Positions 228-31,468 of a DNA stretch of 31,518 nucleotides are shown in pieces. Origin of the DNA: a virus; the UHGV virus genome UHGV-0133195. The stretch is one strand, 5' to 3'. Under the pieces are notes generated by a model. The model had not been told where the DNA came from. It worked only from the letters and a program-made list of their open reading frames with translations, and ran no database searches. Position numbers and translations under genes: made by a program. Each line of letters begins with the position of its first letter. Within the stretch, counting starts at the first letter, position 1.

Positions 228-1214
228 TCACTTTTGCCCCCTCATGAACACTGGATTTAATGTAATGGCGTCCTGTAAATAATCAGGTGCAAGGTGTGCA
301 TATGCCATTGTTTGATTAATTGAAGCATGGCCCAGAATTTTTTGCAGAGTGAGTATATTTCCACCGTTCATCATAAAGTGGCTGGCGAAGGTGTGCCTCA
401 TTACGTGGGTAGCCTGACCAGCAGGTAAATCAAACAGACCTTTCAATATGTCACGGAAAGCGAAATAGTCAGCATCGGGGAAAATGCTTCCTGATTTACG
501 GTTTTTGGTGATCTCATCATGCAGCGATGCGCTAATGGGAACCGTTCGATTTTTACCGTTTTTTGTATCAGTGAAAACAGCTTTGTATTTCAGAATGCGC
601 GAACGTTGGATTTGTGCAGCCTCATCCCATCGCGCACCAGTGGACAAGGCAAATTTTGCGAGGCGTAGATTGTCACCGTCCAGGGCAAGCAGTAGTTGCT
701 CAATTTGCGATGAGGTAAGAAATATTTTCTCGTTTTCCGTGGTTTTAACACGGGGAAGATTAGATAGGGGGTTGCTTTGTGAATACTGACCAGCCTTAAT
801 TAGTGCGGTGAAAACGCCACTGAGCAAAGCATGTTCCCGGTTAATGGTAGTAGGGCTGATACCGGCAAGTAGCCGGTTAGCCCGATATTCGGTAAACATC
901 TTTTTGTTAATGTCACCGGCGCTAGGGTTGCTGAGTTCGTAGCATATGCGATCCAGCTCAATCCGCATGATTTCCCCAGATTTTAAAGATTGGCCGTGAT
1001 ACTTCCACCAGGCTGCGATCAACTCCTCCAGAGTTCGGGTATCTTTCTTATCATCAACCATCCATTCTTTGTTGTTGTAATTCGAGACAGCCCACCGTTC
1101 GAAGCGTAGCGCTTCCGCGCGGGTGGCAAAGCGCCGACGCAGCCGCACACCCTTGCGGCCCTGTGGTCGCAAGTCCACCATATACCGACCATCTTCAAGT
1201 TTGTTGATCGTCAT
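228..1214 (-). CDS. int: Tyrosine recombinase (phage integrase, P2 Int-like)
   Basis: C-terminal catalytic region with HxxR-type motif (VMRHTFASH) and ...LGHASINQTMAYAHL ending typical of tyrosine integrases; first in-frame ATG at 1214 (MTINKLEDGRY...); the track ORF extends upstream to 1283. Confidence 0.9.
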   Translation of the reverse strand: MTINKLEDGRYMVDLRPQGRKGVRLRRRFATRAEALRFERWAVSNYNNKEWMVDDKKDTRTLEELIAAWWKYHGQSLKSGEIMRIELDRICYELSNPSAGDINKKMFTEYRANRLLAGISPTTINREHALLSGVFTALIKAGQYSQSNPLSNLPRVKTTENEKIFLTSSQIEQLLLALDGDNLRLAKFALSTGARWDEAAQIQRSRILKYKAVFTDTKNGKNRTVPISASLHDEITKNRKSGSIFPDADYFAFRDILKGLFDLPAGQATHVMRHTFASHFMMNGGNILTLQKILGHASINQTMAYAHLAPDYLQDAITLNPVFMRGQK

Positions 1215-1353
1215 TTGTGTTACCTGGTTTGTCTGAGTTTTAGATGTTTTTAATTTCAATACACTTTTAGTTAACAAGAACATTCGTTAACCCAGAAATC
1301 ACGGTAGTGACAGATGCCACCTTTACCCCATCGTTTCATTATTTCCGAAGCAA

Positions 1354-2764: not shown

Positions 2765-3748
2765 ATGATTCGATCTCTCGTTAAATGGCCCGGTGGTAAA
2801 GGCCGCGTTATGCCTGATTTGCTGCCGATTCTGCCGAAAGCCGATTGCCTGGTGGAACCGTTTGTCGGCGGTGCTTCTGTTTTCCTCAATACTGAATATC
2901 GCCGTTATATCCTGGGTGATATCAACCCAGATTTAATTAACCTGTATCGCCAGATAACCCGCTGGCCTGATGCGGTGATCGACGCTGCTCGCCCGCTGTT
3001 TAAAGTGTACGGTGATAAAGACGGCTATAAGTGGATCCGCGACGATTTCAACGCTCGCGCCCATGACCTTCTGTCATCGCGCAATGTGTTTGAGGACGGA
3101 CCGGACGCGGGCAAGATTCTTCGTGCAGCACAGTTTCTTTACCTGAACCGTCACGGATATAACGGCGTAGTGCGCTACAACCAACAGGGCGGATATAACG
3201 TTCCCTTTGGTAGACACAAAACCCCGCCTTACTTCCCGGAAGAACAGATCCGTTTATTCTCTGAAAAAGCTAACGACACGAAAGCTATTTTCGTGTGCTG
3301 CGATTTCCAGAGCACGTTAAAAATCATGATTGGTAGTGACGCAGTTATCTACTGCGATCCGCCATACCTGCCAACAAGCGAAACCGCTAATTTCACCCAA
3401 TACCACACCGCCCCGTTTGGGATTAAAGAGCATCGCCAGTTAGCTGCAGCCCTGCTGGATATTAACCGCCTTACTGGTTCGCCGGTGATCCTGTCCAATA
3501 GCGACACCCCAGCCACCCGCGAGATTTATCGCGCTTTCAACTTCCAGGAAATCAGCGTTAACCGTTCTGTCAGTGCGAACGCCATTACCAGAGGGGCCGC
3601 CAGTGAAGTGATTGGCGTCCTGAAAGTGTGTAGCGGCTGCGGTCGTGCCGGTGGTGGCCGTTGCCCTGATTGTGGCCCTGTCATGGGTAACGCGACCTAT
3701 AACGAAATGCTGGCAACGGCTGCGGCCTATGGCGTGGAGCCGTTCTGA
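2765..3748 (+). CDS. N6-adenine DNA methyltransferase, Dam-like, with C-terminal Cys4 zinc-ribbon-like tail
   Basis: N-terminal WPGGKG and FVGGASVF motifs and catalytic DPPY (CDPPYLP); C-terminal CSGCGRAGGGRCPDCG cluster. Confidence 0.85.
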   Translation: MIRSLVKWPGGKGRVMPDLLPILPKADCLVEPFVGGASVFLNTEYRRYILGDINPDLINLYRQITRWPDAVIDAARPLFKVYGDKDGYKWIRDDFNARAHDLLSSRNVFEDGPDAGKILRAAQFLYLNRHGYNGVVRYNQQGGYNVPFGRHKTPPYFPEEQIRLFSEKANDTKAIFVCCDFQSTLKIMIGSDAVIYCDPPYLPTSETANFTQYHTAPFGIKEHRQLAAALLDINRLTGSPVILSNSDTPATREIYRAFNFQEISVNRSVSANAITRGAASEVIGVLKVCSGCGRAGGGRCPDCGPVMGNATYNEMLATAAAYGVEPF

Positions 3749-7917: not shown

Positions 7918-8610
7918 ATGAGTTACCTGGGAAGTAAAGCGGCCAGCGGGGTCTTTCAGAAAATCATTGCCGAAATGCCCCCGCATGATACCTACATTGA
8001 AACGCATCTGGGCAGCGGTGCGGTGATGTTCCATAAACCGCCAGCCCAGCATTCTGTCGGGATTGATATTGATTCAGCTGCATTTTCGCTGACAAGGCGG
8101 CGCTGGAAAGATAAAGGATTAACGCCCCCTGACATCCATTTCCATTATGGCGATGCTGTCAGCTTTCTGGAGGGATATTTTGATTTTGCGACTGCGGGCC
8201 GGGTACTGATTTACGCCGATCCTCCTTACATGCCGGAAACGCGCACCAGTCGCGCCCGTTATCGCCATGAATACACCGTCGCCGATCATGAGCGCCTTTT
8301 ACGTTGCCTGATGTCACTGCCGGAAAATGTGAGTGTCATTTTGTCTGGCTACCCGTCGCAGCTTTATGACAGCACGCTGACCGGCTGGCGAACGCGGGAA
8401 TTTCAGGCCATGACGCGGGGCGGTGTGCGAACGGAAAAAATCTGGATGAATTATGAGGAAGGGAAAGCCTATTCCCACACCTTTGCCGGAAAGGACTACA
8501 ACGACCGGGCCAGGATAAAACGTAAAGCGGCACGCTGGCGGGATAAGTTCGCCGCCCTGCCGCCAGCGGAACGGCTGGCAATTATGACCGCGCTTTGTGA
8601 TGTCGAATAA
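7918..8610 (+). CDS. Second Dam-like N6-adenine DNA methyltransferase (short, 230 aa)
   Basis: YLGSKAAS and THLGSGAVMF motifs followed by catalytic DPPY (YADPPYMP); GGGAAAG Shine-Dalgarno upstream. Confidence 0.8.
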   Translation: MSYLGSKAASGVFQKIIAEMPPHDTYIETHLGSGAVMFHKPPAQHSVGIDIDSAAFSLTRRRWKDKGLTPPDIHFHYGDAVSFLEGYFDFATAGRVLIYADPPYMPETRTSRARYRHEYTVADHERLLRCLMSLPENVSVILSGYPSQLYDSTLTGWRTREFQAMTRGGVRTEKIWMNYEEGKAYSHTFAGKDYNDRARIKRKAARWRDKFAALPPAERLAIMTALCDVE

Positions 8611-8636: not shown

Positions 8637-8903
8637 TTATGCCGTCTGACCGTTGAGCAGGTCCAGCGCGAATTGACGTTCTTCCGGCTTGAGCCGGTCA
8701 ATCAGGAATTTAACCAGCTTGTTACCGGTCAGCCCGCTGGGGCTGAGAGTATGTGAAAACTGGGCGTTAAAAACAAAGGTGTGGCCGCATTCCACTTCCG
8801 TGCAGGCGCAGTATAAATCGGCCAGTTTTTTATCTTTCCAGTCAGATTTGCGAATGATGGCCGGTGAGCCGCATTCAGGACATTTAATTTTAAAAACTCG
8901 CAT
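8637..8903 (-). CDS. Ogr/Delta-family zinc-finger late transcription activator, putative
   Basis: CPEC ... CACTEVECGHTF spacing resembles P2 Ogr (CPLC ... CQNVNCSATF, recalled); start taken at ATG 8903 (MRVFKIKCPEC); the track ORF extends to 8963. Confidence 0.65.
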   Translation of the reverse strand: MRVFKIKCPECGSPAIIRKSDWKDKKLADLYCACTEVECGHTFVFNAQFSHTLSPSGLTGNKLVKFLIDRLKPEERQFALDLLNGQTA

Positions 8904-8959
8904 GTTCACCATCCCGCACGCCATTGCTAACAATGGGGATGATTTTAACTTAATTGCGC

Positions 8960-10021
8960 TCATTTTTCGCCCTTTTCGGCGGTAATTGCCGGGATATCCA
9001 CGTCAAAAACCAGGTGCAAATGTGGGGGGATCTCCGGGTCATTGTTGACGCCGTTCATTAGTTTGCGTTGCAACGGGATAACCTCATCCTTGCGATAGGT
9101 TGCGCGGGCCGTTTCAGGGTTGCCCATTATCGCGCCGTTGGTCGGGATAATACCCGCCAGACCTGCGGGGAAGCGGTGAGCTGTAAAGATATCCTGCGCG
9201 GTGATCCCTTTGATGTTGGCAAATTCATCCTTTGCGCTGACTTCGCCCACTGGCATGATTTTAACCCCTTCCGGGTCGCCCTTCGGGATGTTGATAAACA
9301 TATTGCGGAAGTTACCCAGCCCTTTGGACTGGGCGATCTTCTCTTTGATTTCGTTTTCCATTTCCAGCGTGAGATTGGGATCGCTGGTATAGAGAATAAA
9401 GCCCATGTGCGCCCCGTTATTGTAGTAACGGCGTCGGAAGATGGTTGCCTCACTGTTGAGTAACACCGAATGGATGCCGCCGATATAGTCAGGCAGGCCA
9501 TATACCTGCTGGCGCGGGTCGTACATTTTAAAGAAGACGATGTCTTCCGGGTCATAAATAAGCGCTGGCCCTTCCTGCAGGACAGCAAACGAGCCGTCTT
9601 TCCGGCAGCGCAGATACAGCGACGGCAGCGGCAGCAGGTCGATCACTTCCCCGAATACGTTACGAATTTTCAGGATAGCGACGTCACCAAACAGCAGGTA
9701 ATCAAAGACAGCCTGTTCGACCTGGTCAGGCGTCAGGCCGCCGCCGATATAGCCACCGGCCACCATATTGCGCCGCGCATACAGCACCCCGCCGTGTTGG
9801 CCGTTAAGGTTCGGCAACTGGGCCAGCGCCAGGCGATCAATCGGGAGTCGCCAGTGGTCATACTCATTGTCATACCAGATATTGTGATAATCAGTGCCGG
9901 TCGTCAGGATGGGTTCGGGTTCGCCAAATGTGATCACGCTTCCGCGCCCTGGCGTGAAGGATTCAACCTTGCTGCCGGTCATGGACCTGAATTTTTTATT
10001 ATTACGCTGTTTCTTTGTCAT
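8960..10021 (-). CDS. Q: Portal protein (P2 gpQ-like)
   Basis: 353-aa protein immediately downstream of and overlapping the terminase ATPase gene on the minus strand, in the P2-type Q-P arrangement divergent from the capsid operon. Confidence 0.8.
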   Translation of the reverse strand: MTKKQRNNKKFRSMTGSKVESFTPGRGSVITFGEPEPILTTGTDYHNIWYDNEYDHWRLPIDRLALAQLPNLNGQHGGVLYARRNMVAGGYIGGGLTPDQVEQAVFDYLLFGDVAILKIRNVFGEVIDLLPLPSLYLRCRKDGSFAVLQEGPALIYDPEDIVFFKMYDPRQQVYGLPDYIGGIHSVLLNSEATIFRRRYYNNGAHMGFILYTSDPNLTLEMENEIKEKIAQSKGLGNFRNMFINIPKGDPEGVKIMPVGEVSAKDEFANIKGITAQDIFTAHRFPAGLAGIIPTNGAIMGNPETARATYRKDEVIPLQRKLMNGVNNDPEIPPHLHLVFDVDIPAITAEKGEK

Positions 10022-11829
10022 GCTGCTTTCCCAAAGTACCAGCCCGATGGGCGGTCATATTCGTGATCGATAGGTTCGTTAATTACGGCGTGCGAGATAG
10101 CGAAGAAAACATCTGCATGGCCGGTCGCGTCTGAACGTTCGGCAACAAACGTCAGCGCGTTGCCGCTGTTGGTTGTCGTGCGCCGGATAGCCATAAAGCT
10201 GGCCGGAATTTCGACGCGCTCCTTGTTCGTTTCGTCTACGGCGTCTTTTGCCCATTCGATGCGCTTACGCTCGACAACGTCGATCATCTTCATCACCAGG
10301 CGGTTTTTGCTTTCGACGCTGTAAAGAATGGGTGTGGCTTCGCGTGGCGCAAATTTGCTGACAAGGTCATAAACGCCTTTACCTATGCCGGTTGTATCGA
10401 TCCCGATGTAAGTGATGTTAAAGCGGCGCATAAGCTGCTTTATCTGGTCGGCCTGCCAGCTGAAGTTAAAACCCTGCCATTGCCAGACGGCCAGCACGCG
10501 GAAGCGCTCGCCGTCCTCTACAGGGGGCGCGATTAACACAAATGTTGAGTTGTCGCCGGAGCGCGACGGGTCAAAACCTGCCCATACTTCGCGATTGCCG
10601 AAGGGCCGCGCAGCGGTCAGATCAAAGTCGCCCCATGTGGCCCGGTCCACTTCACAGCCGACAAGCGCGGAGAACTTGAAAACCGCGTCCTTACTGTCAA
10701 CAAACTGGCACATGTAGAGCATGGCGAACGCGGTCGGGTTGTATTTGTTGCGCAGCCGTTCAATATCGACAAGCGCCCCGAGGCCGCCTTCGATAGCGTC
10801 TTCCATCGTGATGATGTAGCGCCAGATCTGGTCCGGGCAAAGAATGCCCTGTCGCATTTCGCTTTCGTTCGGGAACTTCACACCTTTGCGTTTCGGGTCG
10901 TCCCCGCGCCAGGCTTCGCCAGTCCAGACCGGGTAAGCCTGGTGCGTTTTCGCGCTGGGCGTCGAAAAGTAGGTCGTGCGGTATTTGTTATGCGTTGCCA
11001 TTGCGCTGGCAACTTCATGCAGGCGCGTGAATTTCGGGATCCAGAAAACCTCATCGCCATACAGGTGGCCGTTAAAGCCCTGTGAGGTACTGGCGTTCGT
11101 GGACAAAAAGCGCAGTATTGCGCCGTTACTGAGGCGGATATTTTTACCCGTCAGCGTCACGCCGAAATGGTTCTGGGCGATCTGGACGATGTATTCGCGG
11201 AAGATTTCCGACTGGGATCGGCTTGCGGAGAAAAAGACCTGGTTATCACCGGTAATGACGGCGTCTTCAAATGCTTCCCAGGCGAAATAATAGGTCATAC
11301 CCACCTGGCGGCTTTTCAGAATGAAGCGCCAGTCTTCGCCTTTATGTTCGCGGCAGTGCAGCTGGTACTCGAAGAGATGTTCCTGCGCCCAGGTGTCGAG
11401 CATTTCCGCTGTAATACCGGAAACGTCGTTTTTCTTATACCGGCGCTTTCTTTCCCCTGGTTCCCCGCCTGCGCTGCTGAGGCAGTACCCTTCACCATCA
11501 TAAGCCGCTTTCTGGGCCTGAATTTCTGCCAGCTTTTCGGCGTGCTTGTTGCGCTGCGCCATGAGTTTCACATGGTGAGCAATCAGATCGCGCAGTTCTT
11601 CCAGTTCCAGCGCTGTTTTTTTCTCGCGGCGGGAGAGCTGGTCGATACGGCGGGCGATGACATTTTCCACCGATTCAACAGGCAGCAGTGATGCCCACTT
11701 CCCGACATCAGCCCAGTGGTAAATTGTACGCGGTGGAATATTCAGTTCCTGCGCAATATCTTTCGGCGTCCAGCTTTTTATATAAAGCGTGCGGGCCGCT
11801 TCTTTTAATTCATCGGAATATTTAGCCAT
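10018..11829 (-). CDS. P: Terminase large (ATPase) subunit (P2 gpP-like)
   Basis: 603 aa; N-terminal HTH-like region and ATPase core (KSRQVGMTYYFAWEAFEDAV); transcribed divergently from the scaffold gene. Confidence 0.85.
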   Translation of the reverse strand: MAKYSDELKEAARTLYIKSWTPKDIAQELNIPPRTIYHWADVGKWASLLPVESVENVIARRIDQLSRREKKTALELEELRDLIAHHVKLMAQRNKHAEKLAEIQAQKAAYDGEGYCLSSAGGEPGERKRRYKKNDVSGITAEMLDTWAQEHLFEYQLHCREHKGEDWRFILKSRQVGMTYYFAWEAFEDAVITGDNQVFFSASRSQSEIFREYIVQIAQNHFGVTLTGKNIRLSNGAILRFLSTNASTSQGFNGHLYGDEVFWIPKFTRLHEVASAMATHNKYRTTYFSTPSAKTHQAYPVWTGEAWRGDDPKRKGVKFPNESEMRQGILCPDQIWRYIITMEDAIEGGLGALVDIERLRNKYNPTAFAMLYMCQFVDSKDAVFKFSALVGCEVDRATWGDFDLTAARPFGNREVWAGFDPSRSGDNSTFVLIAPPVEDGERFRVLAVWQWQGFNFSWQADQIKQLMRRFNITYIGIDTTGIGKGVYDLVSKFAPREATPILYSVESKNRLVMKMIDVVERKRIEWAKDAVDETNKERVEIPASFMAIRRTTTNSGNALTFVAERSDATGHADVFFAISHAVINEPIDHEYDRPSGWYFGKAA

Positions 11830-12005
11830 GCGGCTATTATGGCGGGATTATTTTGCAGAATTGATAATTAAATATCGGTAAAAAGTGGCTAACAATTTAT
11901 AACCGAATACATAAGAAATAAAGCGGTCGCGCTGTTTTAATCAATTCGCAATACTGACCACCACAAACGAATCATTGTTATTAAATTCATTATTAAAGGT
12001 CAGTT

Positions 12006-14120: not shown

Positions 14121-14822
14121 ATGGCCATGACCCCGTGTCAGCGACACCGAGCACGCGTGAAAGCCGCAAAGGCGCTGGATAAGTGCGAAGCCCTGACGGC
14201 ATCGCCGGTCAGCTTTCACATTCAAATGCTGGAGCTGGAAAGGGATGTTGAACGGCTTCGCAGTCTGACGCGTGCAGAACGCATCGACATGAAGCGCGAC
14301 GTTCTTTTGCCGCGCTGGATGCCGACCGTCGAGGCATATCTCGCCGGTGATGCCCGCTTTGCCAATCCGGCCCTGGTTTACTGCGTGATCTGGCTGTTCG
14401 ATACGGGGGAAATGGGCAAGGCGCTGGACTGGGCGGACGTGGCTATCAGTGAGAGCCAGGCCACGCCGGAAAACTTTAAAAGCAACCTGCCTGCCTTTGT
14501 GGCCGACACGGTGCTGGAGTGGGCGATCATGCAGGCGGAAGCCGGTCACAGTATCGAACCCTATTTCAGCCGCACGTTTGAAAACATCCGCGAAAAGTGG
14601 CGTTTGCATGAAGACATTAACGCGAAGTGGTTCAAGTTCGCCGGTCTTTACCTGCTGCGCGACGAGAAGGGGCAGCCGCGTGCCACTGCCGTGGATGATG
14701 TGAACACGCTGGAGCAGGCCGACGCCCTGCTGGCCCAGGCGGCGGCGTACAACAAAAACGCCGGAGTTAAGACCATGCGCGAAAAAATCCGCGCCCGGAT
14801 TAACGGCCTGACCCAGCTTTAA
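14121..14822 (+). CDS. M: Terminase small / endonuclease subunit (P2 gpM-like)
   Basis: 233 aa; position after the capsid gene and before head completion matches P2 gpM. Confidence 0.75.
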   Translation: MAMTPCQRHRARVKAAKALDKCEALTASPVSFHIQMLELERDVERLRSLTRAERIDMKRDVLLPRWMPTVEAYLAGDARFANPALVYCVIWLFDTGEMGKALDWADVAISESQATPENFKSNLPAFVADTVLEWAIMQAEAGHSIEPYFSRTFENIREKWRLHEDINAKWFKFAGLYLLRDEKGQPRATAVDDVNTLEQADALLAQAAAYNKNAGVKTMREKIRARINGLTQL

Positions 14823-26526: not shown

Positions 26527-27238
26527 ATCGGTTGTAAAGATTGCTGACGATATGGGGGCGCTGGCCTGTTCCATTGTGCCAGCGCATCCCTGGGTTTACG
26601 GGCTGGGACAGAACACGGATTCAGGCGGTTATCTTAGTCCGGCCAATGCGATGGGGTATCTTGCTAAAAAGCTGTTATCCGGTGGCGGTAGCGGTGACGT
26701 CATCGTCATGATGGTGGCGGAAAATACCCATGACGCTTTTATGCAGGGACTGAATAAACTGTCCACCGTATTTCCGGCCCCGGTATTTACACAGGTAAGC
26801 CGCATGGCCGCCGCCGCCGCAGAACTCAGCACGGTAAAAATGCAGTTGCCGGTTAAAGCCGATGTATTGCCAGCCAGTGCGCCGTTATCCGTTTCAACCA
26901 ACCGGCTGGCGCTGAATGCCCAGCGTGTTGCCGCCGCGCAGCTGGCCGCCGCAGTCAGTACCACCACAACAGATCTAAAAAATCAGGTTACGGGATTTAT
27001 TCAGGAACGGGCCGGTTTGCTGGCATCACTCAGCCAGGGACTGGACGACCTGAAAGCCGCCAGCGCGAACATTTTTTCATTCAGTTACAGCGGAAGTTAT
27101 GCCGTTGCTGCCGCTGAATTGCTGAAAGGCATCCCGCAAACAACGGCAGTGCATACTGCCGCGATGATGTTTATCGGGGATTCGTTATCTGACTTAGGGA
27201 AGATGCTACATGAGCCAGACCGCATTACTCGCGCTTGA
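26516..27238 (+). CDS. Hypothetical protein (240 aa), Ala-rich, function unknown
   Basis: ATG at 26516 overlapping the tfa stop (the track ORF starts at 26219); no recognisable catalytic motif. Confidence 0.5.
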   Translation: MWRESVVKIADDMGALACSIVPAHPWVYGLGQNTDSGGYLSPANAMGYLAKKLLSGGGSGDVIVMMVAENTHDAFMQGLNKLSTVFPAPVFTQVSRMAAAAAELSTVKMQLPVKADVLPASAPLSVSTNRLALNAQRVAAAQLAAAVSTTTTDLKNQVTGFIQERAGLLASLSQGLDDLKAASANIFSFSYSGSYAVAAAELLKGIPQTTAVHTAAMMFIGDSLSDLGKMLHEPDRITRA

Positions 27239-27752
27239 TGGTGAAGGGATCGCCATGCAGAACATGCTGGTTTCACCCTCTATGCAGTTTCAGGAGAAGG
27301 ACCAGTCGGGCCAGACATCGAGCACGGCCAATGCTGAACAGGGTATCAAGGCCAAAGAGCTGCGCGTGTCGGGTCTGGTGACATTTGACGACGAAGCCGT
27401 CTTACAGCGGCTTTTCCAGCTGGCATCCGCAACCGAAGCCAGCGGCGCGTTAAAAAAGTACCGCGTCGCCAATGCGACGGCGACGGCTATCAACCTTCGC
27501 GAAGCCACGTTCACCGGTCAGATTGATGCCGTACCGCAGGAGGATCGCCTTGCCTGGCAGGTAAGTTTCACCCTGCGTGAAAAAGGCAGCGTCCCGGAAA
27601 AACGACAGGCCCGAAAAGGCAACGCGACGGCCAGCACCAAGCAAACAGGGGCAAAGGGCGCGGGTCCGGCTGCCGGTGCTGATGAACCAGCCGACAAAAT
27701 GAGCTGGTTTGAAGAAAAAGTCTTAAAGCCGGTCAACGATGCGCTGGGGTAA
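27210..27752 (+). CDS. Hypothetical protein (180 aa), possibly tail-associated
   Basis: ORF overlapping the previous gene by 29 nt, immediately upstream of the hub-spike gene; a gpU-like tail terminator role is possible by position only. Confidence 0.4.
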   Translation: MSQTALLALDGEGIAMQNMLVSPSMQFQEKDQSGQTSSTANAEQGIKAKELRVSGLVTFDDEAVLQRLFQLASATEASGALKKYRVANATATAINLREATFTGQIDAVPQEDRLAWQVSFTLREKGSVPEKRQARKGNATASTKQTGAKGAGPAAGADEPADKMSWFEEKVLKPVNDALG

Positions 27753-27759
27753 TTAAACG

Positions 27760-29484
27760 ATGAAACCAATTAAACGCCTGTACCTTTCCTCTGATCCGGT
27801 CCATCTGATTGACTGCAATATCGTGCTGGAGCTGAACGCGTGCGGTCGGGGGTTTATTACGGCGGGGACAGAGACAGATTACACCGGCAAAATGGTGCGG
27901 ATCGATGTTGGTTATGATGGTCTGGTCCTGCGCTGGTTTACCGGGTATGTCGAACGGTCACAGCCTGCTGATAATGGAACATGCCGGTTGTTCGTGCGTG
28001 AGCTGATCGGCATCTTTGATAAATTGTGGCCGTGTTCTTTCCAGCATCCAACGCTTCGCCAGATTACTGACTGGATAAGTGAGCAAAGCGGGCTGGCCGT
28101 CACAACGCCGGTCGGCGCTGCTTATGCAGATAAACCGATCCCCCATTTTACGCACAGCGGAACGGGCTATCAGCTTCTTGCCAGTCTGGGCCGCGCATTT
28201 ACAGTGACGGATTATCTTTGGTATCAGCTGCCGGACGGGGACGTCTTCGTCGGCGCTGCGGAGCACAGTCTTTTTGCGGGTAAGCCAGTGGAGATCCCGC
28301 ACGAATTTAGCCAGGCATCGGCGGGCGGTAATTCAATGGTTGTGCCGATGATTCAGAGCCTGCGACCAGGTGCGGAAGTGAACGGCCAGCGGGTGAATCA
28401 GGTCCGGCTAAATAACGACGACATGGCAATTACCTGGCAGCCTCGCAACAAAGCCACCGGCCAGCCATTGCAAAAATCACCGATTCAGCGGCAGATAGAA
28501 AACGCATTCCCGGAGCTGGCAAGCGGCCTGCATCTTCCAAAATTCGCCAGGGTGGAAGCACCAAGCGAGGATGTATCAGGGGGGAATATTGCCGATCCAT
28601 TCCGCCCGCGCTATGCCGTGGATCTCCAGCTGCTTGACGAAGACGGCAAGCCAGCCGCAAATACGCCGGTCTATTCTGCCGTTCCGCTACCTGTACCAAT
28701 GGCGGGCAGCGAGTCGGGAATGTTTCAGTTTCCGCCCCCTGGCACGCTGGTTGAAGTTGGATTCACTGAGGGACGGCAGGATAAGCCCTTTGTGCGCCAG
28801 ATTATGGCGGAGGGTCATAACCTGCCAGCGGTTAAACCCGGCGAGCAGTTGCAGCAACAGCGCGATGGTGTATCGCAGCGCGTGACGGTTGCCGGAGACT
28901 GGGAACGCCAGACGGACCAGACAATCCGCGAAAACTCCATGACTCGCGAAGTCACCACCGACGAAGAGATCCGCAAAGTGGTTGTCCGTGAAACTACGGT
29001 CCAGGCAACGGATAAAACAACCGTGCTTGGCACGGCCACACTTCTGGCCGGGGCGGTGGTCCATATCAGCGAGGGGGATTACAGCGTCGGCACATCCGGC
29101 AACCTGACAGTAACCTGCAGCAAGGACAATTCCGTCAGTGTTGGCCGGAACGTGAAACGGGACGTCGCGGGCAATGTAACAGACGACGTAAAAGGGAATG
29201 TCACGTCAAACGTCAGCGGCGCACTGACCGAAAAAATCAGCGGTATCCGCCGAAGTGTGGCCAAGGCGCAACAGATGATTGCCCCGGTGGTAAAACTGGG
29301 AAGCGAAGAGATTAACGTCCTGACACTACTCACCGACACCCTGGACGTGGTGAGGGAACTGGCAGAGACTGCCGCGTCACATACTCACCCCAATACAGGG
29401 GCCAGCGGGCAGGCTGCGCAGTTCACCGCAACGGCCACTAAAACCGGCACATTGAAAAGCAAATACGGTCCCCTGATAGCCTGA
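27760..29484 (+). CDS. Baseplate hub-spike protein (VgrG-like architecture)
   Basis: 574 aa; central segment MFQFPPPGTLVEVGFTEGRQDKPFV resembles the gpV/gp5 OB-fold signature; downstream repetitive GNVTDDVKGNVTSNVSG (beta-helix-like) and C-terminal SHTHPN (HxH, as at the P2 gpV spike apex). Confidence 0.55.
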   Translation: MKPIKRLYLSSDPVHLIDCNIVLELNACGRGFITAGTETDYTGKMVRIDVGYDGLVLRWFTGYVERSQPADNGTCRLFVRELIGIFDKLWPCSFQHPTLRQITDWISEQSGLAVTTPVGAAYADKPIPHFTHSGTGYQLLASLGRAFTVTDYLWYQLPDGDVFVGAAEHSLFAGKPVEIPHEFSQASAGGNSMVVPMIQSLRPGAEVNGQRVNQVRLNNDDMAITWQPRNKATGQPLQKSPIQRQIENAFPELASGLHLPKFARVEAPSEDVSGGNIADPFRPRYAVDLQLLDEDGKPAANTPVYSAVPLPVPMAGSESGMFQFPPPGTLVEVGFTEGRQDKPFVRQIMAEGHNLPAVKPGEQLQQQRDGVSQRVTVAGDWERQTDQTIRENSMTREVTTDEEIRKVVVRETTVQATDKTTVLGTATLLAGAVVHISEGDYSVGTSGNLTVTCSKDNSVSVGRNVKRDVAGNVTDDVKGNVTSNVSGALTEKISGIRRSVAKAQQMIAPVVKLGSEEINVLTLLTDTLDVVRELAETAASHTHPNTGASGQAAQFTATATKTGTLKSKYGPLIA

Positions 29485-29550
29485 CAAAAAGCGGCATAAC
29501 CGCACACCTCACCAGACACCACAGAACGCGCCACAACAGGCGCAAATATT

Positions 29551-29580
29551 AAAGGCCGCCACCGTGCGGCCTTTCTTTCG
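29551..29580 (+). terminator. Rho-independent terminator after the tail operon
   Basis: Stem AAAGGCCGC / GCGGCCTTT with 6-nt loop CACCGT followed by a T-rich tract (TTTCTTTCG). Confidence 0.6.
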
Positions 29581-29688
29581 TTCGTTCAACAGCGGCCCAC
29601 AGCGTAAGCGACAGCAGGCAGGCGGAAGCGGATCCAGGACGGAAACGGCGCTACACCGCACCCGCCTGCGCAGTTTGGATCATAAAAA

Positions 29689-29800
29689 TTTTGCAAAGGA
29701 AATTTTGTGCAAAGTACCCCGCCAGCCTGCGACGCTGCTGGGCTTTTGCATCCTGCGGGCGTTTGCACGCTGCGCAAAGATTTGCAGCACTTTGCAAAAG
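29689..29800. repeat. Array of TTTGCA / TTTGCAAA motifs, including four tandem 10-bp units
   Basis: Palindromic TTTGCAAA at 29690-29697 and 29791-29798 (third copy at 29970-29977, outside this span); TTTGCA at 29745-29750, 29762-29767 and 29781-29786; decamers gTTTGCAcgc / TGCGCAaaga / TTTGCAgcac / TTTGCAaaag at 29761-29800. Confidence 0.5.
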
Positions 29801-29993
29801 TCACCGCGCCGCCAGTTGCTAACCGACTGGATAACATGATGTTTTTAAAAGGATCGTTTTAGTTTCCGTCACGATCAAATGCGGCTAGGGGTTGTATGGG
29901 AATATTTGGCGGGAATTCTGCGAAGCCTTGCGGCGCAAGGCTTTAGGGGGAAAACTTCATGATTTGGGTTTTGCAAAATAATGCTAAGAAGGA

Positions 29994-30524
29994 TCAATCA
30001 GGTAGGCGGCCTTTAGTCACCTCAAAATCAATCAGTTTGTTTGTTTTCGTATCAAGTGTACAAGAATACGTCATATTAACTTTGGCGTTAAAACCATTGG
30101 TAAATTTCAGCTTATCGCCCACATAAACAATCTGGTTCTGTTCCGGTTTGTTAATGTACCGACTAAAGATATTTTCAAATGCACCATTGGTCCATTCGAA
30201 ATCATACTTTGAAGTTTTCTCAATAGGGCTTTTACAGGCTACCAAAGCATCAACCAAATGGGCTTCAAAAATACACTGCCCATCATTCTTATCACACACC
30301 TTAACTTTTGGCTCATCTTTGGCCGTTGCCTCTTCATCACCGCTGAAATACCAGTAACCAATCCCAGCCAGCACTAAGAGAACGATAAAACCGCCAAACG
30401 CATCGCTTGCTTTGACGCCTGGATTTTTGACACCACAATGAGGGCATGTCTTTGCCTTGGATGAAATCTCTTTTTTACACTCTTTACACTTAACCAATGC
30501 CATCTGATAAACCATCCTTTTCAT
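29994..30524 (-). CDS. AT-rich cargo gene: N-terminal zinc-ribbon, single transmembrane helix, C-terminal domain of unknown function
   Basis: CKECKK ... CPHCG zinc ribbon, hydrophobic helix FGGFIVLLVLAGIGYWYF, then about 110 aa with conserved Cys; visibly lower G+C than the phage genes; first ATG at 30524 (the track start at 30536 is a TTG). Confidence 0.55.
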   Translation of the reverse strand: MKRMVYQMALVKCKECKKEISSKAKTCPHCGVKNPGVKASDAFGGFIVLLVLAGIGYWYFSGDEEATAKDEPKVKVCDKNDGQCIFEAHLVDALVACKSPIEKTSKYDFEWTNGAFENIFSRYINKPEQNQIVYVGDKLKFTNGFNAKVNMTYSCTLDTKTNKLIDFEVTKGRLPD

Positions 30525-30703
30525 CTGGATAACCAAGAAACCGAAGTCTAACGGCTACGTGCATTCAGGAAAAGGAAAAAGCCCAGCAGTATCTGCAAGG
30601 CTTTGAGTTGGTATCACAAGGACTAACACTTCGACGTGGTCATTTTGTGGACCTATTAATATAAAAATCAATTAAAATCAATGTGTTATGTTGAATGTAA
30701 AAT

Positions 30704-30718
30704 AACAGATTGTTTTTT
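30704..30718. other. Candidate attR core (right copy of 15-bp direct repeat)
   Basis: Exact copy of 107-121; immediately adjacent to the stop codon (30719-30721) of the MurR/RpiR-family gene. Confidence 0.4.
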
Positions 30719-31468
30719 TTACGCTATTCTTTTCGCCAGCTTGCGACCGAGTGATTCCAGAATATAAATAACGGGGATCTGCGTGGTTATATCGTATACC
30801 CCGGCAATACGTGTTTGTGGAACATGCCAGGAGAGGTTAAAGTCGGCGAGTTTCGCCAGGCGAGAGTGTTCATGGCTGGTGACCGACAGAACCTTACAGT
30901 TGTGCAGACTGAACTGGCTGGCAAAGCGCAGGATCTCTTCTGTTTCACCAGATACGGAAAGCACGATCGCCAGCGCGTTTCTGGCCATGTCGTTAGTGAC
31001 CGGGAAATAAGGATCGTCAATGTGATTACTGAATTTACCGACGTTTGAGAAAAAACGTGCGCCATATTTTGCCAACGCTCCAGACGTTCCTGCTCCGACG
31101 AATATAATACGTTCGGACGATAATATAATATCAACAGCCTGATCGAGCAGTTTATCGAACTCGTCGTTATTGACGCCTTTAAAGAAACTGATAATTTCGC
31201 TGGCACCGAAATTAGCCTGTTGCGGTTCATTCTGCTCTAAATATAATTTGAAGCGCACGCGAAATTCTGAGTAACCTTCACATTTAAGCTTGCGGCAAAA
31301 GCGCAGTACGGTGGTAGTAGAAACACCCACGGCATCGGCCAGCTCGCGAATGGTCATGTACATGACTTTGTCACGGTTTTTGATGACATAGTTGTAGACC
31401 AGCATCTCAAGATTGTTGAGACTGGCGATGGCAGCGTGGGAGAACATACTCACAATGGCAAAACTCAC
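30719..31468 (-). CDS. MurR/RpiR-family transcriptional regulator (HTH plus SIS domain), probable host gene
   Basis: N-terminal HTH region (TIRELADAVGVSTTTVLRFCRKL) and SIS sugar-phosphate-binding region (IIFVGAGTSGALA); the true start may be an internal Met (for example MFSHAAIASL). Confidence 0.8.
   Translation of the reverse strand: MSFAIVSMFSHAAIASLNNLEMLVYNYVIKNRDKVMYMTIRELADAVGVSTTTVLRFCRKLKCEGYSEFRVRFKLYLEQNEPQQANFGASEIISFFKGVNNDEFDKLLDQAVDIILSSERIIFVGAGTSGALAKYGARFFSNVGKFSNHIDDPYFPVTNDMARNALAIVLSVSGETEEILRFASQFSLHNCKVLSVTSHEHSRLAKLADFNLSWHVPQTRIAGVYDITTQIPVIYILESLGRKLAKRIA

Follow-up and report, generated by a model that had tools for sequence, protein, structure and literature searches.

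Positions 29622–29978 of the 31.5-kb stretch of DNA analyzed here (the window, to which all coordinates refer) are in our assessment the cos site of an HP1-like Peduoviridae prophage, with a probability of about 0.8, and the TTTGCA repeats on the right flank of this site are putative terminase recognition sites. The window is an HP1-like Peduoviridae prophage that combines a P2-like head module with an HP1-like tail end. The longest exact repeat common to both ends of the window is the 15-bp direct repeat AACAGATTGTTTTTT, found at 107–121 (attL) and 30704–30718 (attR), and it identifies the att cores and the end of the prophage. The integrase gene (228..1283), an Ogr/Delta-like gene (8637..8963), and the portal gene (8960..10021) were located. 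The same genome encodes a cos-type terminase of the P2 gpP/gpM family. The large subunit is of the P2 gpP type (10018..11829, minus strand; PF06056 Terminase_5, PF03237, and PF17289, the last two being Terminase_6N and Terminase_6C) and has an N-terminal helix-turn-helix. The small subunit is of the P2 gpM type (14121..14822, plus strand; PF05944, phrog_74).

The last baseplate gene and a small cargo gene flank the cos region, and attR comes after the cargo gene. The last tail/baseplate gene (27760..29484, plus strand) is a homologue of HP1 orf35 (41% identity over its full length, E 1e-156) that also matches phrog_2258, a baseplate protein family, and it serves as the synteny anchor immediately 5' of the cos region. 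An orf34-like gene (27210..27752) matches PF25759 HP1_ORF34. The gene order is thus orf34-like, orf35-like, the element, cargo, and att/int, and the element is not beside the portal gene. The tail operon ends in an intrinsic-terminator-like hairpin and T-run on the plus strand (29551..29584), where the inverted repeat AAAGGCCGC..GCGGCCTTT is followed by CTTTCGTTCG. This structure agrees with an earlier note, made from the sequence of the window, that placed the region 3' of a terminator. The note also found no convincing open reading frame, and this held. The only sizeable one across the region (29564..29839, 91 aa) has no PHROG family match, and indels between relatives in the region have lengths that are not multiples of three. 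The GTG start of this frame falls inside the terminator.

The motif that defines the region is clustered far beyond chance. The window contains exactly three copies of the octamer TTTGCAAA, starting at 29690, 29791, and 29970, as the earlier note had reported. Their number in 31.5 kb is unremarkable, because at least three copies appeared in 25 of 100 shuffles, and it is their clustering that is unusual. The hexamer TTTGCA has 33 matches in the window on both strands, and 10 of these fall in 29690–29977. The maximum found in 400 first-order Markov simulations of the whole window was 6 matches per 300 bp compared to the 10 observed. Simulations based on the local composition of 29480–30000 (n = 5000) gave a mean of 1.37 matches, and none reached 10. 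This TTTGCA cluster is the sole one in the genome.

The motif copies are arranged around a putative cos cleavage core. The core, GGCGCTACACCGCACCCGCCTGC (29647..29669), is cosN-like, occurs once in the window, and sits 25 bp upstream of the first motif copy. Two direct repeats of the ACGGAA type, GCGGAAGCGG (29622–29631) and ACGGAAACGG (29639–29648), occupy the left flank (29622–29648). An AT-rich tract with a conserved GATC, TTTGGATCATAAAAATTTT (29674..29692), follows the core and leads into a proximal pair of motif copies, TTTTGCAAAG (29689–29698) and TTGTGCAAAG (29705–29714). The inverted repeat CCAGC-N10-GCTGG (29722..29741) separates the proximal pair from a palindromic array of four sites with 10-bp phasing (29762..29799), whose sites read TTTGCAC, TGCGCAAAG, TTTGCAG, and TTTGCAAAA. 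An extra copy of CTTTTGCA is present at 29743..29750 in this prophage and its closest relatives only. The array corresponds to the decamers cgTTTGCAcg, cTGCGCAAAg, aTTTGCAgca, and cTTTGCAAAa (29760–29799), which comprise three direct TTTGCA sites and one inverted, imperfect site (TTTGCGCA, minus strand). The earlier description of four TTTGCA-like decamers at 10-bp spacing is therefore right about the phasing and slightly overstated as four copies of TTTGCA. Farther 3', a perfect inverted repeat, AAGCCTTGCG-G-CGCAAGGCTT (29923..29943), has arms of 10 bp rather than the 9 bp first assigned to it, and a distal motif copy, TTTGCAAAA, is found at 29970..29978.

The element was compared among relatives of the prophage. 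DNA that is ~95% identical was found in 19 E. coli chromosomes and in the Salmonella phages SI7, SW3, and SW5. The part that blastn could still align was limited to 29633–29799 in more distant E. coli prophages and Yersinia phage vB_YenM_324. The element is 3' of the orf35 homologue in every relative examined, and the genes that follow it vary, including AbiH, three Hok/Gef genes, PIN-domain proteins, and hypothetical genes. The first alignment revealed a nearly invariant GC-rich segment, GACGGAAACGGCGCTACACCGCACCCGCCTGC, together with an AT-rich stretch containing GATC. IMG/VR was scanned for the pattern of the right half of the core, and of the at least 120 loci returned, ~117 are true elements. 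The core is nearly invariant across these ~117 elements, which share one layout consisting of left repeats, core, two proximal sites, palindrome, four-site array, and distal site. The compact array begins +95 to +105 from the core (GCACCC) in 100 of the 117 elements, and GATC is located at +20 to +24 in 77 of 113. On the 3' side of the core, conservation peaks on the motif positions and not on the spacers. The motif search in related prophages that the earlier note recommended thus showed that the motif positions are kept in ~117 elements while the spacers drift. The conserved positions and drifting spacers support, at the level of sequence, its general idea of a helically phased protein-binding array in noncoding DNA. 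Two loci, L089 and L098, retain the left repeats and core and have only scattered TTTCAG/CTGAAA before a tRNA-type attR. The compact array may not be strictly required in some contexts, or these prophages may be defective.

Two versions of the motif were found, and they are mutually exclusive. Elements with TTTCA/TGAAA were designated type A (106 elements; the version carried by ESSI-2, the ev phages, and YenM_324) and elements with TTTGCA/TGCAAA were designated type G (11 elements, including L004 and L090, which were added by hand). Type G elements contain 5–10 TTTGCA-type matches and 0–1 TTTCA-type matches. The two versions are swapped at every site and in register. The left-flank repeats are conserved in type G, and the type A counterparts at the same positions are GACAAAATAAA and GACAAAAACGG. 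The AT-rich tract is highly conserved in the type A consensus. In the type G proximal pair, TTTTGCAAA and G.GCAAA are invariant, and type A has TTTTTCAGTT and TTCTACAAAC instead. The type A array reads CTGAAAAG, TTGAAAAG, TTTCAG, and TTTTCAG in the same register, and both sides of the array palindrome change together between the types. TTTGCA is invariant in the distal copy of type G elements, and type A carries ACTGAAAAA in its place. Nearly all aligned elements have the CCAG..CTGG palindrome, with an extension that varies. The extra CTTTTGCA copy is not retained in L118, L128, and L004, which are diverged type G elements. Sequence conservation is poor across 29880–29990, yet the hairpin and the last motif copy stay in register. 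A hairpin-capable element recurs in relatives at the position of 29923–29943 with a different sequence; type G elements retain AAGCC..GGCT(T/G) there, and EC22 has CCAGAAGC/GCTTCTGG. By alignment, TTTGCA is a lineage-specific version of the TTTCA/TGAAA motif found at matching positions in most relatives.

The ends of virion genomes in public records coincide with the core. The predicted position of the cos ends is derived from assembly breaks in the public records of relatives. Phage SW5 is ~95% identical to the window in this region, and its record was assembled with Ray from virion DNA sequenced with Nextera XT. The record starts with GCACCCGCC at the equivalent of 29658 and ends with ..CTACACCGC at the equivalent of 29659, leaving a 2-nt redundancy. 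The junction is internal in the SI7 and SW3 records, and both are without exactly CTACACC (29651–29657), a 7-nt gap. ESSI-2 carries the 15-nt terminal direct repeat CTACACCGCACCCGC (in window orientation), which corresponds to 29651–29665. The records of ESSI2_ev015, ev129, and ev239 break in the same 15 nt, and Nextera adapter sequence abuts the breaks. The record ends of SW5, ESSI-2, ev015, ev129, and ev239 are thus all within the equivalents of 29651–29665, and it is not credible that so many independent breaks fell inside 15 nt of a 30-kb genome by chance. The assemblies disagree on the exact boundary, and overhangs of 7, 9, 12, or 15 nt each fit some of them.

The layout of the region matches the cos site of HP1 (Hpunavirus, Peduoviridae), which has the same order of orf34, orf35, cos, attP, and int and P2-type gpP/gpM genes. 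In the HP1 record (NC_001697), cosL occupies 1–9, attP spans 251–694, int starts at 698, and orf35 ends 192 nt before the right end. The left flank of the mapped HP1 end has ACGGAAA repeats at −14, −44, and −108, and the right flank has TTTCA at +37, +48, +128, +138, and +148. Type A elements have ACAAAA at −39 and −19, TTTCA at +33, TGAAA at +106 and +115, and TTTCA at +124 and +134. HP1 and the site described here share ACGGAAA-type repeats on the left and TTTCA-type repeats at ~+35 to +50 and ~+105 to +150 on the right. It is the layout and spacing of the flanks that are common to both, and the likeness is architectural because the nucleotide identity is low. The cores also differ, with ..CCACT|TCCTTCCCC.. 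in HP1 and ..GGCGCTACACCGCACCCGCC.. here. In addition, a cargo gene is inserted between cos and attP in this prophage, and TTTGCA replaces TTTCA.

The cos sites of P2, 186, and P4 have 19-nt 5' cohesive ends and are located downstream of the portal gene Q. They resemble the site described here in the gpP/gpM terminase family, the head module, and a G+C-rich cohesive-end region. A P2-type cos was considered and rejected, as the P2 19-mer is absent from the window even when 3 mismatches are allowed. The cos of lambda is organized as cosQ-cosN-cosB, its R sites are read by the small terminase subunit, and lambda and phage 21 have different specificities. The likeness to lambda would be functional, in that both sites appear to place a conserved nicking core and flanking repeated recognition elements at the genome end and both may form discrete specificity classes in which sites and terminase change together. 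The sequence and the terminase family are unrelated to those of lambda, and here the repeats are on both sides of the core with a palindromic 2+2 arrangement. No IHF site is evident here by eye, unlike in lambda cos. P2 cos adjoins Q, whereas the site described here adjoins attP, as do the cos sites of HP1 and HP2 (PMC2771037).

The motif type was compared with the other modules of each phage, and it follows the terminase/head module (gpM/gpP) and not C, Cox, CI/CII, or Int. The N-terminal gpP signature ELN[IL]PPRT[IV]YHW is present in all type G phages with recoverable head genes, namely the window, SW5, Ec154, and contigs of L056, L073, L077, L105, L118, and L128. The signature in type A phages (ESSI-2, ev015, EC22, and YenM_324) is ELNLPNARI[IV]YYWA, which is one residue longer. 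The identity of gpM is 67–100% within type G and 52–57% between the types. The window and SW5 have an identical array and an identical gpM, whereas the two C proteins share 45% identity and nothing similar to the SW5 Cox was detected in the window. IMGVR_UViG_2619619249_000003 (L128, L175) has a type G cos and terminase, yet its CI/CII regulators are like those of type A phages. Prophages integrated at different places in the chromosome, one beside yegQ and another beside an RpiR-family gene, also have near-identical arrays. The co-segregation of motif type with the terminase module is largely phylogenetic, since type G appears to be one clade, and a single recombinant and a single immunity swap are all that decouple it from other modules. 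Covariation tested on five genomes was uninformative by itself because the type G phages form a clade in every head gene, and the test became informative only with the inclusion of portal-anchored IMG/VR loci. The Ogr-like gene likewise moves together with the head module.

The most economical reading of the repeats is that they are terminase recognition sites. In the mechanism that we propose, terminase would make staggered nicks in the GC-rich core (29647–29669) to give the cohesive ends of virion DNA. The right-flank TTTGCA/TGCAAA copies would most likely have a cosB-like role as its recognition sites. The recognition set would consist of the two proximal sites, the palindromic 10-bp-phased four-site array, and the one distal site, and the ACGGAA-type repeats of the left flank are probably part of the same recognition apparatus. 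Candidates for reading the sites are gpM, the N-terminal helix-turn-helix of gpP, or both. The 10-bp phasing would place the sites on one face of the helix, where an oligomeric terminase could bind cooperatively or wrap the DNA, and the bound oligomer would then position the nuclease on the core. An oligomer bound to one helix face would be in keeping with both the 10-bp phasing and the palindromic 2+2 layout.

A more speculative proposal, which we put forward tentatively, is that there are at least two packaging-specificity classes in the HP1-like enterobacterial Peduoviridae. One class would pair TTTCA/TGAAA with gpP ..LPNARI(I/V)YYWA and the other would pair TTTGCA/TGCAAA with ..(I/L)PPRT(I/V)YHW. 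In both, the N-terminal helix-turn-helix of gpP, instead of a classical small subunit, would read the repeats, and the class would determine which cos-bearing defective prophages or satellites a given phage can mobilize. Such an arrangement would parallel the cosB system of lambda and phage 21. We found no description of specificity classes of this kind for this family in the searchable literature.

An alternative that keeps the core as cos is that another phage protein binds the TTTGCA sites, for example a regulator of transcription in the cos–attP cargo slot. We consider this unlikely. The sites are upstream of the variable cargo slot, a palindromic 2+2 layout is also typical of operators, the core is found without a compact array in L089 and L098, and terminase binding to the sites is itself a prediction from sequence. 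However, the distance between the array and the core is fixed in 100 of 117 elements, while the cargo varies in identity, number, and orientation. The differences among relatives in what the cargo is (AbiH, Hok/Gef, or PIN) and which way it faces tell against the regulator of the adjacent cargo gene that the earlier note had suggested. In addition, 29400–29993 yielded no sigma-70-like promoter, motif type is decoupled from C, Cox, and CI/CII, and HP1 has equivalent flank repeats beside its mapped ends. Ogr-type late promoters bear TTCGG-N-CCGAA and not TTTGCA. Late-activator sites of the Ogr type were rejected as a candidate, because the P-O intergenic regions have a conserved TTCGG..CCGAA instead. 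A lone TTTGCA at 11852 is not conserved in the other type G lineage.

The TTTGCA sites might instead be binding or bending sites through which a host nucleoid protein (IHF, Fis, or H-NS) shapes cos, which we regard as improbable. IHF bends DNA at site I1 in lambda cosB, so a host bending factor does belong to the lambda site, and the surroundings of the motifs here are AT-rich and the motifs are helically phased. The motifs are unlike the IHF consensus as judged by eye. Two exclusive motif versions occupy the same positions in prophages of one host species, E. coli, whereas a host protein would be expected to have a single fixed specificity. The nucleoid-protein site suggested in the earlier note was set aside on these grounds.

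There is very little chance that the sites are tandem Cox/excisionase sites or integrase arm sites of attP. This idea draws on the location of the region between the late genes and attP, on the HP1 cos–attP distance of only ~250 bp, and on the binding of tandem repeats by P2 Cox. Here, however, ~0.9 kb and a gene for a 180-aa protein separate the array from the attR core, both att arms are free of TTTGCA, and the C-cox switch region (1284–2300) contains a single copy. Near-identical arrays persist despite differing integration sites and dissimilar C/Cox, and a type G array is also found alongside CI/CII regulators. The equivalent HP1 repeats (+37 to +148) are outside the annotated attP. The excisionase/Cox-type sites of the earlier note thus fail, in that the distance of the array is fixed to the cos core and not to att, and the array is identical in phages with different C/Cox. 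The Cox, Int, and cargo-regulator readings were ruled out by the position and co-segregation tests.

A structured noncoding RNA transcribed from the region is just as remote. The region is noncoding, and the inverted repeats at 29722–29741 and 29923–29943 recur in relatives with sequence changes that keep the pairing, but there is no Rfam match at the gathering score or E ≤ 1, folding z-scores are unremarkable (−0.76 on the plus strand and −1.70 on the minus strand), and the region has no sigma-70-like promoter. RNAalifold on 48 diverse elements, which addressed the covariance check proposed along with this idea, yielded only the palindromic array (−9.1 kcal/mol), and the seven sequences with both sides changed are the type G lineage and represent a single type A/G switch. 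A tRNA/tmRNA search of the region gave no RNA support.

The motif cluster is thereby explained as normal phage biology. The cos described here belongs to an established kind of element, one that carries no annotation in this group of phages, and the analysis reveals no new kind of system. The homologous segment is present in Salmonella phages SI7, SW3, and SW5, Cronobacter phage ESSI-2, Escherichia phages ESSI2_ev015, ev040, ev129, and ev239, and vB_YenM_324. The annotation of these phage records lacks a cos feature, and the segment is labeled as "none" or "hypothetical protein". We found no open-access paper containing the core sequence string, and the public records of Irrigatiovirus, Seongnamvirus, and Quadragintavirus have no cos annotation. 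The analysis supplies the cos position for the widespread, little-studied group of HP1-like enterobacterial prophages that includes these three. The type A and type G repeats are a natural variant pair for studying DNA recognition by P2-type terminases. The cos also marks the left boundary of the variable cos–attP cargo slot, which holds AbiH, PIN-domain, or Hok/Gef genes in relatives. In the window, the cargo gene outside cos (29994..30536, minus strand) had no PADLOC match; it encodes a zinc-ribbon protein with weak zinc-ribbon Pfam matches that belongs to phrog_13160, a family of unknown function.

The cos region of the window contains two inverted repeats, CCAGC-N10-GCTGG at 29722-29741 and AAGCCTTGCG-G-CGCAAGGCTT at 29923-29943. 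Both remain capable of forming hairpins in related phages despite altered sequence, and no clear T-run follows either of them. The region also carries GATC sites at 29631, 29678, 29852, 29873 and 29992. Across the cos regions this tetranucleotide recurs at set positions: approximately 20 nt rightward of the core in 77 of 113 elements, between about +145 and +159 in the majority, and at +220 in 51 of the 113. Their density is a median of 3 per 415 nt compared to approximately 1.6 expected. The phage encodes two Dam-type methylases (2765..3748 and 7918..8610), and the pairing of these genes with recurrent GATC sites in cos suggests a possible parallel with the Dam-regulated pac site of P1.

The flanks of the core are not uniform among relatives. 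Two prophage loci, L089 (7113-7930) and L098 (approximately 13500, minus strand), retain the left repeats and the core, and their right flank differs and holds only scattered TTTCAG/CTGAAA copies. Such a right flank may represent a third type of cos flank, in addition to those with TTTGCA/TGCAAA (type G) and TTTCA/TGAAA (type A) repeats. The attR of both prophages lies within a tRNA gene about 500 nt downstream.

Contig IMGVR_UViG_2619619249_000003 (loci L128 and L175) is a mosaic. It combines a type G cos and window-like small (gpM, 84%) and large (gpP, 91%) terminases with a CI/CII-type lysogeny module, as in ESSI-2, that replaces C/Cox. The presence of a type G head/cos module and CI/CII on one contig shows that the head/cos and early-region modules have recombined. 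The divergent gpP/gpO intergenic region conserves TTCGG-N(12-14)-CCGAA in phages of both cos types (window 11830-12005; L138 1201-1365; L139 2348-2519). This element is probably the binding site of the Ogr/Delta-like late activator (8637..8963).

Deletion derivatives also keep cos. In E. coli Combat13F7 (L006; NZ_CP019245.1 76371-84476) the order is int, CI, CII, Fil, an orf35-like gene and cos, and the head and tail genes are absent. In IMGVR_UViG_3300048920_000204 (L090/L167) a truncated gpP is fused to the 3' part of the baseplate gene orf35 and accompanied by cos, all within 8.1 kb. These derivatives could be defective remnants or could still be packaged with the aid of a helper phage; for L090, an assembly artefact is a further possibility.

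Illumina Nextera adapter (..AGATGTGTATAAGAGACAG) is present at the ends of the GenBank entries for Escherichia phages ESSI2_ev015, ev129 and ev239 (LR597649, LR597640 and LR597637), at L131 1-50, the end of L132, the start of L134 and the end of L133. In the ev239 entry, unrelated sequence also follows the cos core. Both faults concern the quality of the records at the physical ends of the genomes.

Between cos and attP/attR lies a cargo slot with variable content (window 29994-30703; L001 6620-7585; L004 5135-6666; L007 4496-5614; L008 4425-6558; L132). The window slot encodes a zinc-ribbon protein of unassigned function (phrog_13160) that had no PADLOC match. In relatives the slot is occupied by AbiH, three tandem Hok/Gef genes, PIN-domain proteins, a serine acetyltransferase or small hypothetical genes. 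The slot looks like a defence/moron hotspot of HP1-like prophages. Beyond it, the window prophage (att cores 107-121 and 30704-30718) is integrated directly beside an RpiR/MurR-like regulator gene (30719..31468, minus strand), at the 3' end of that gene, whereas a near-identical phage of E. coli 2011C-4251 adjoins yegQ. Thus, integration sites differ among closely related phages.
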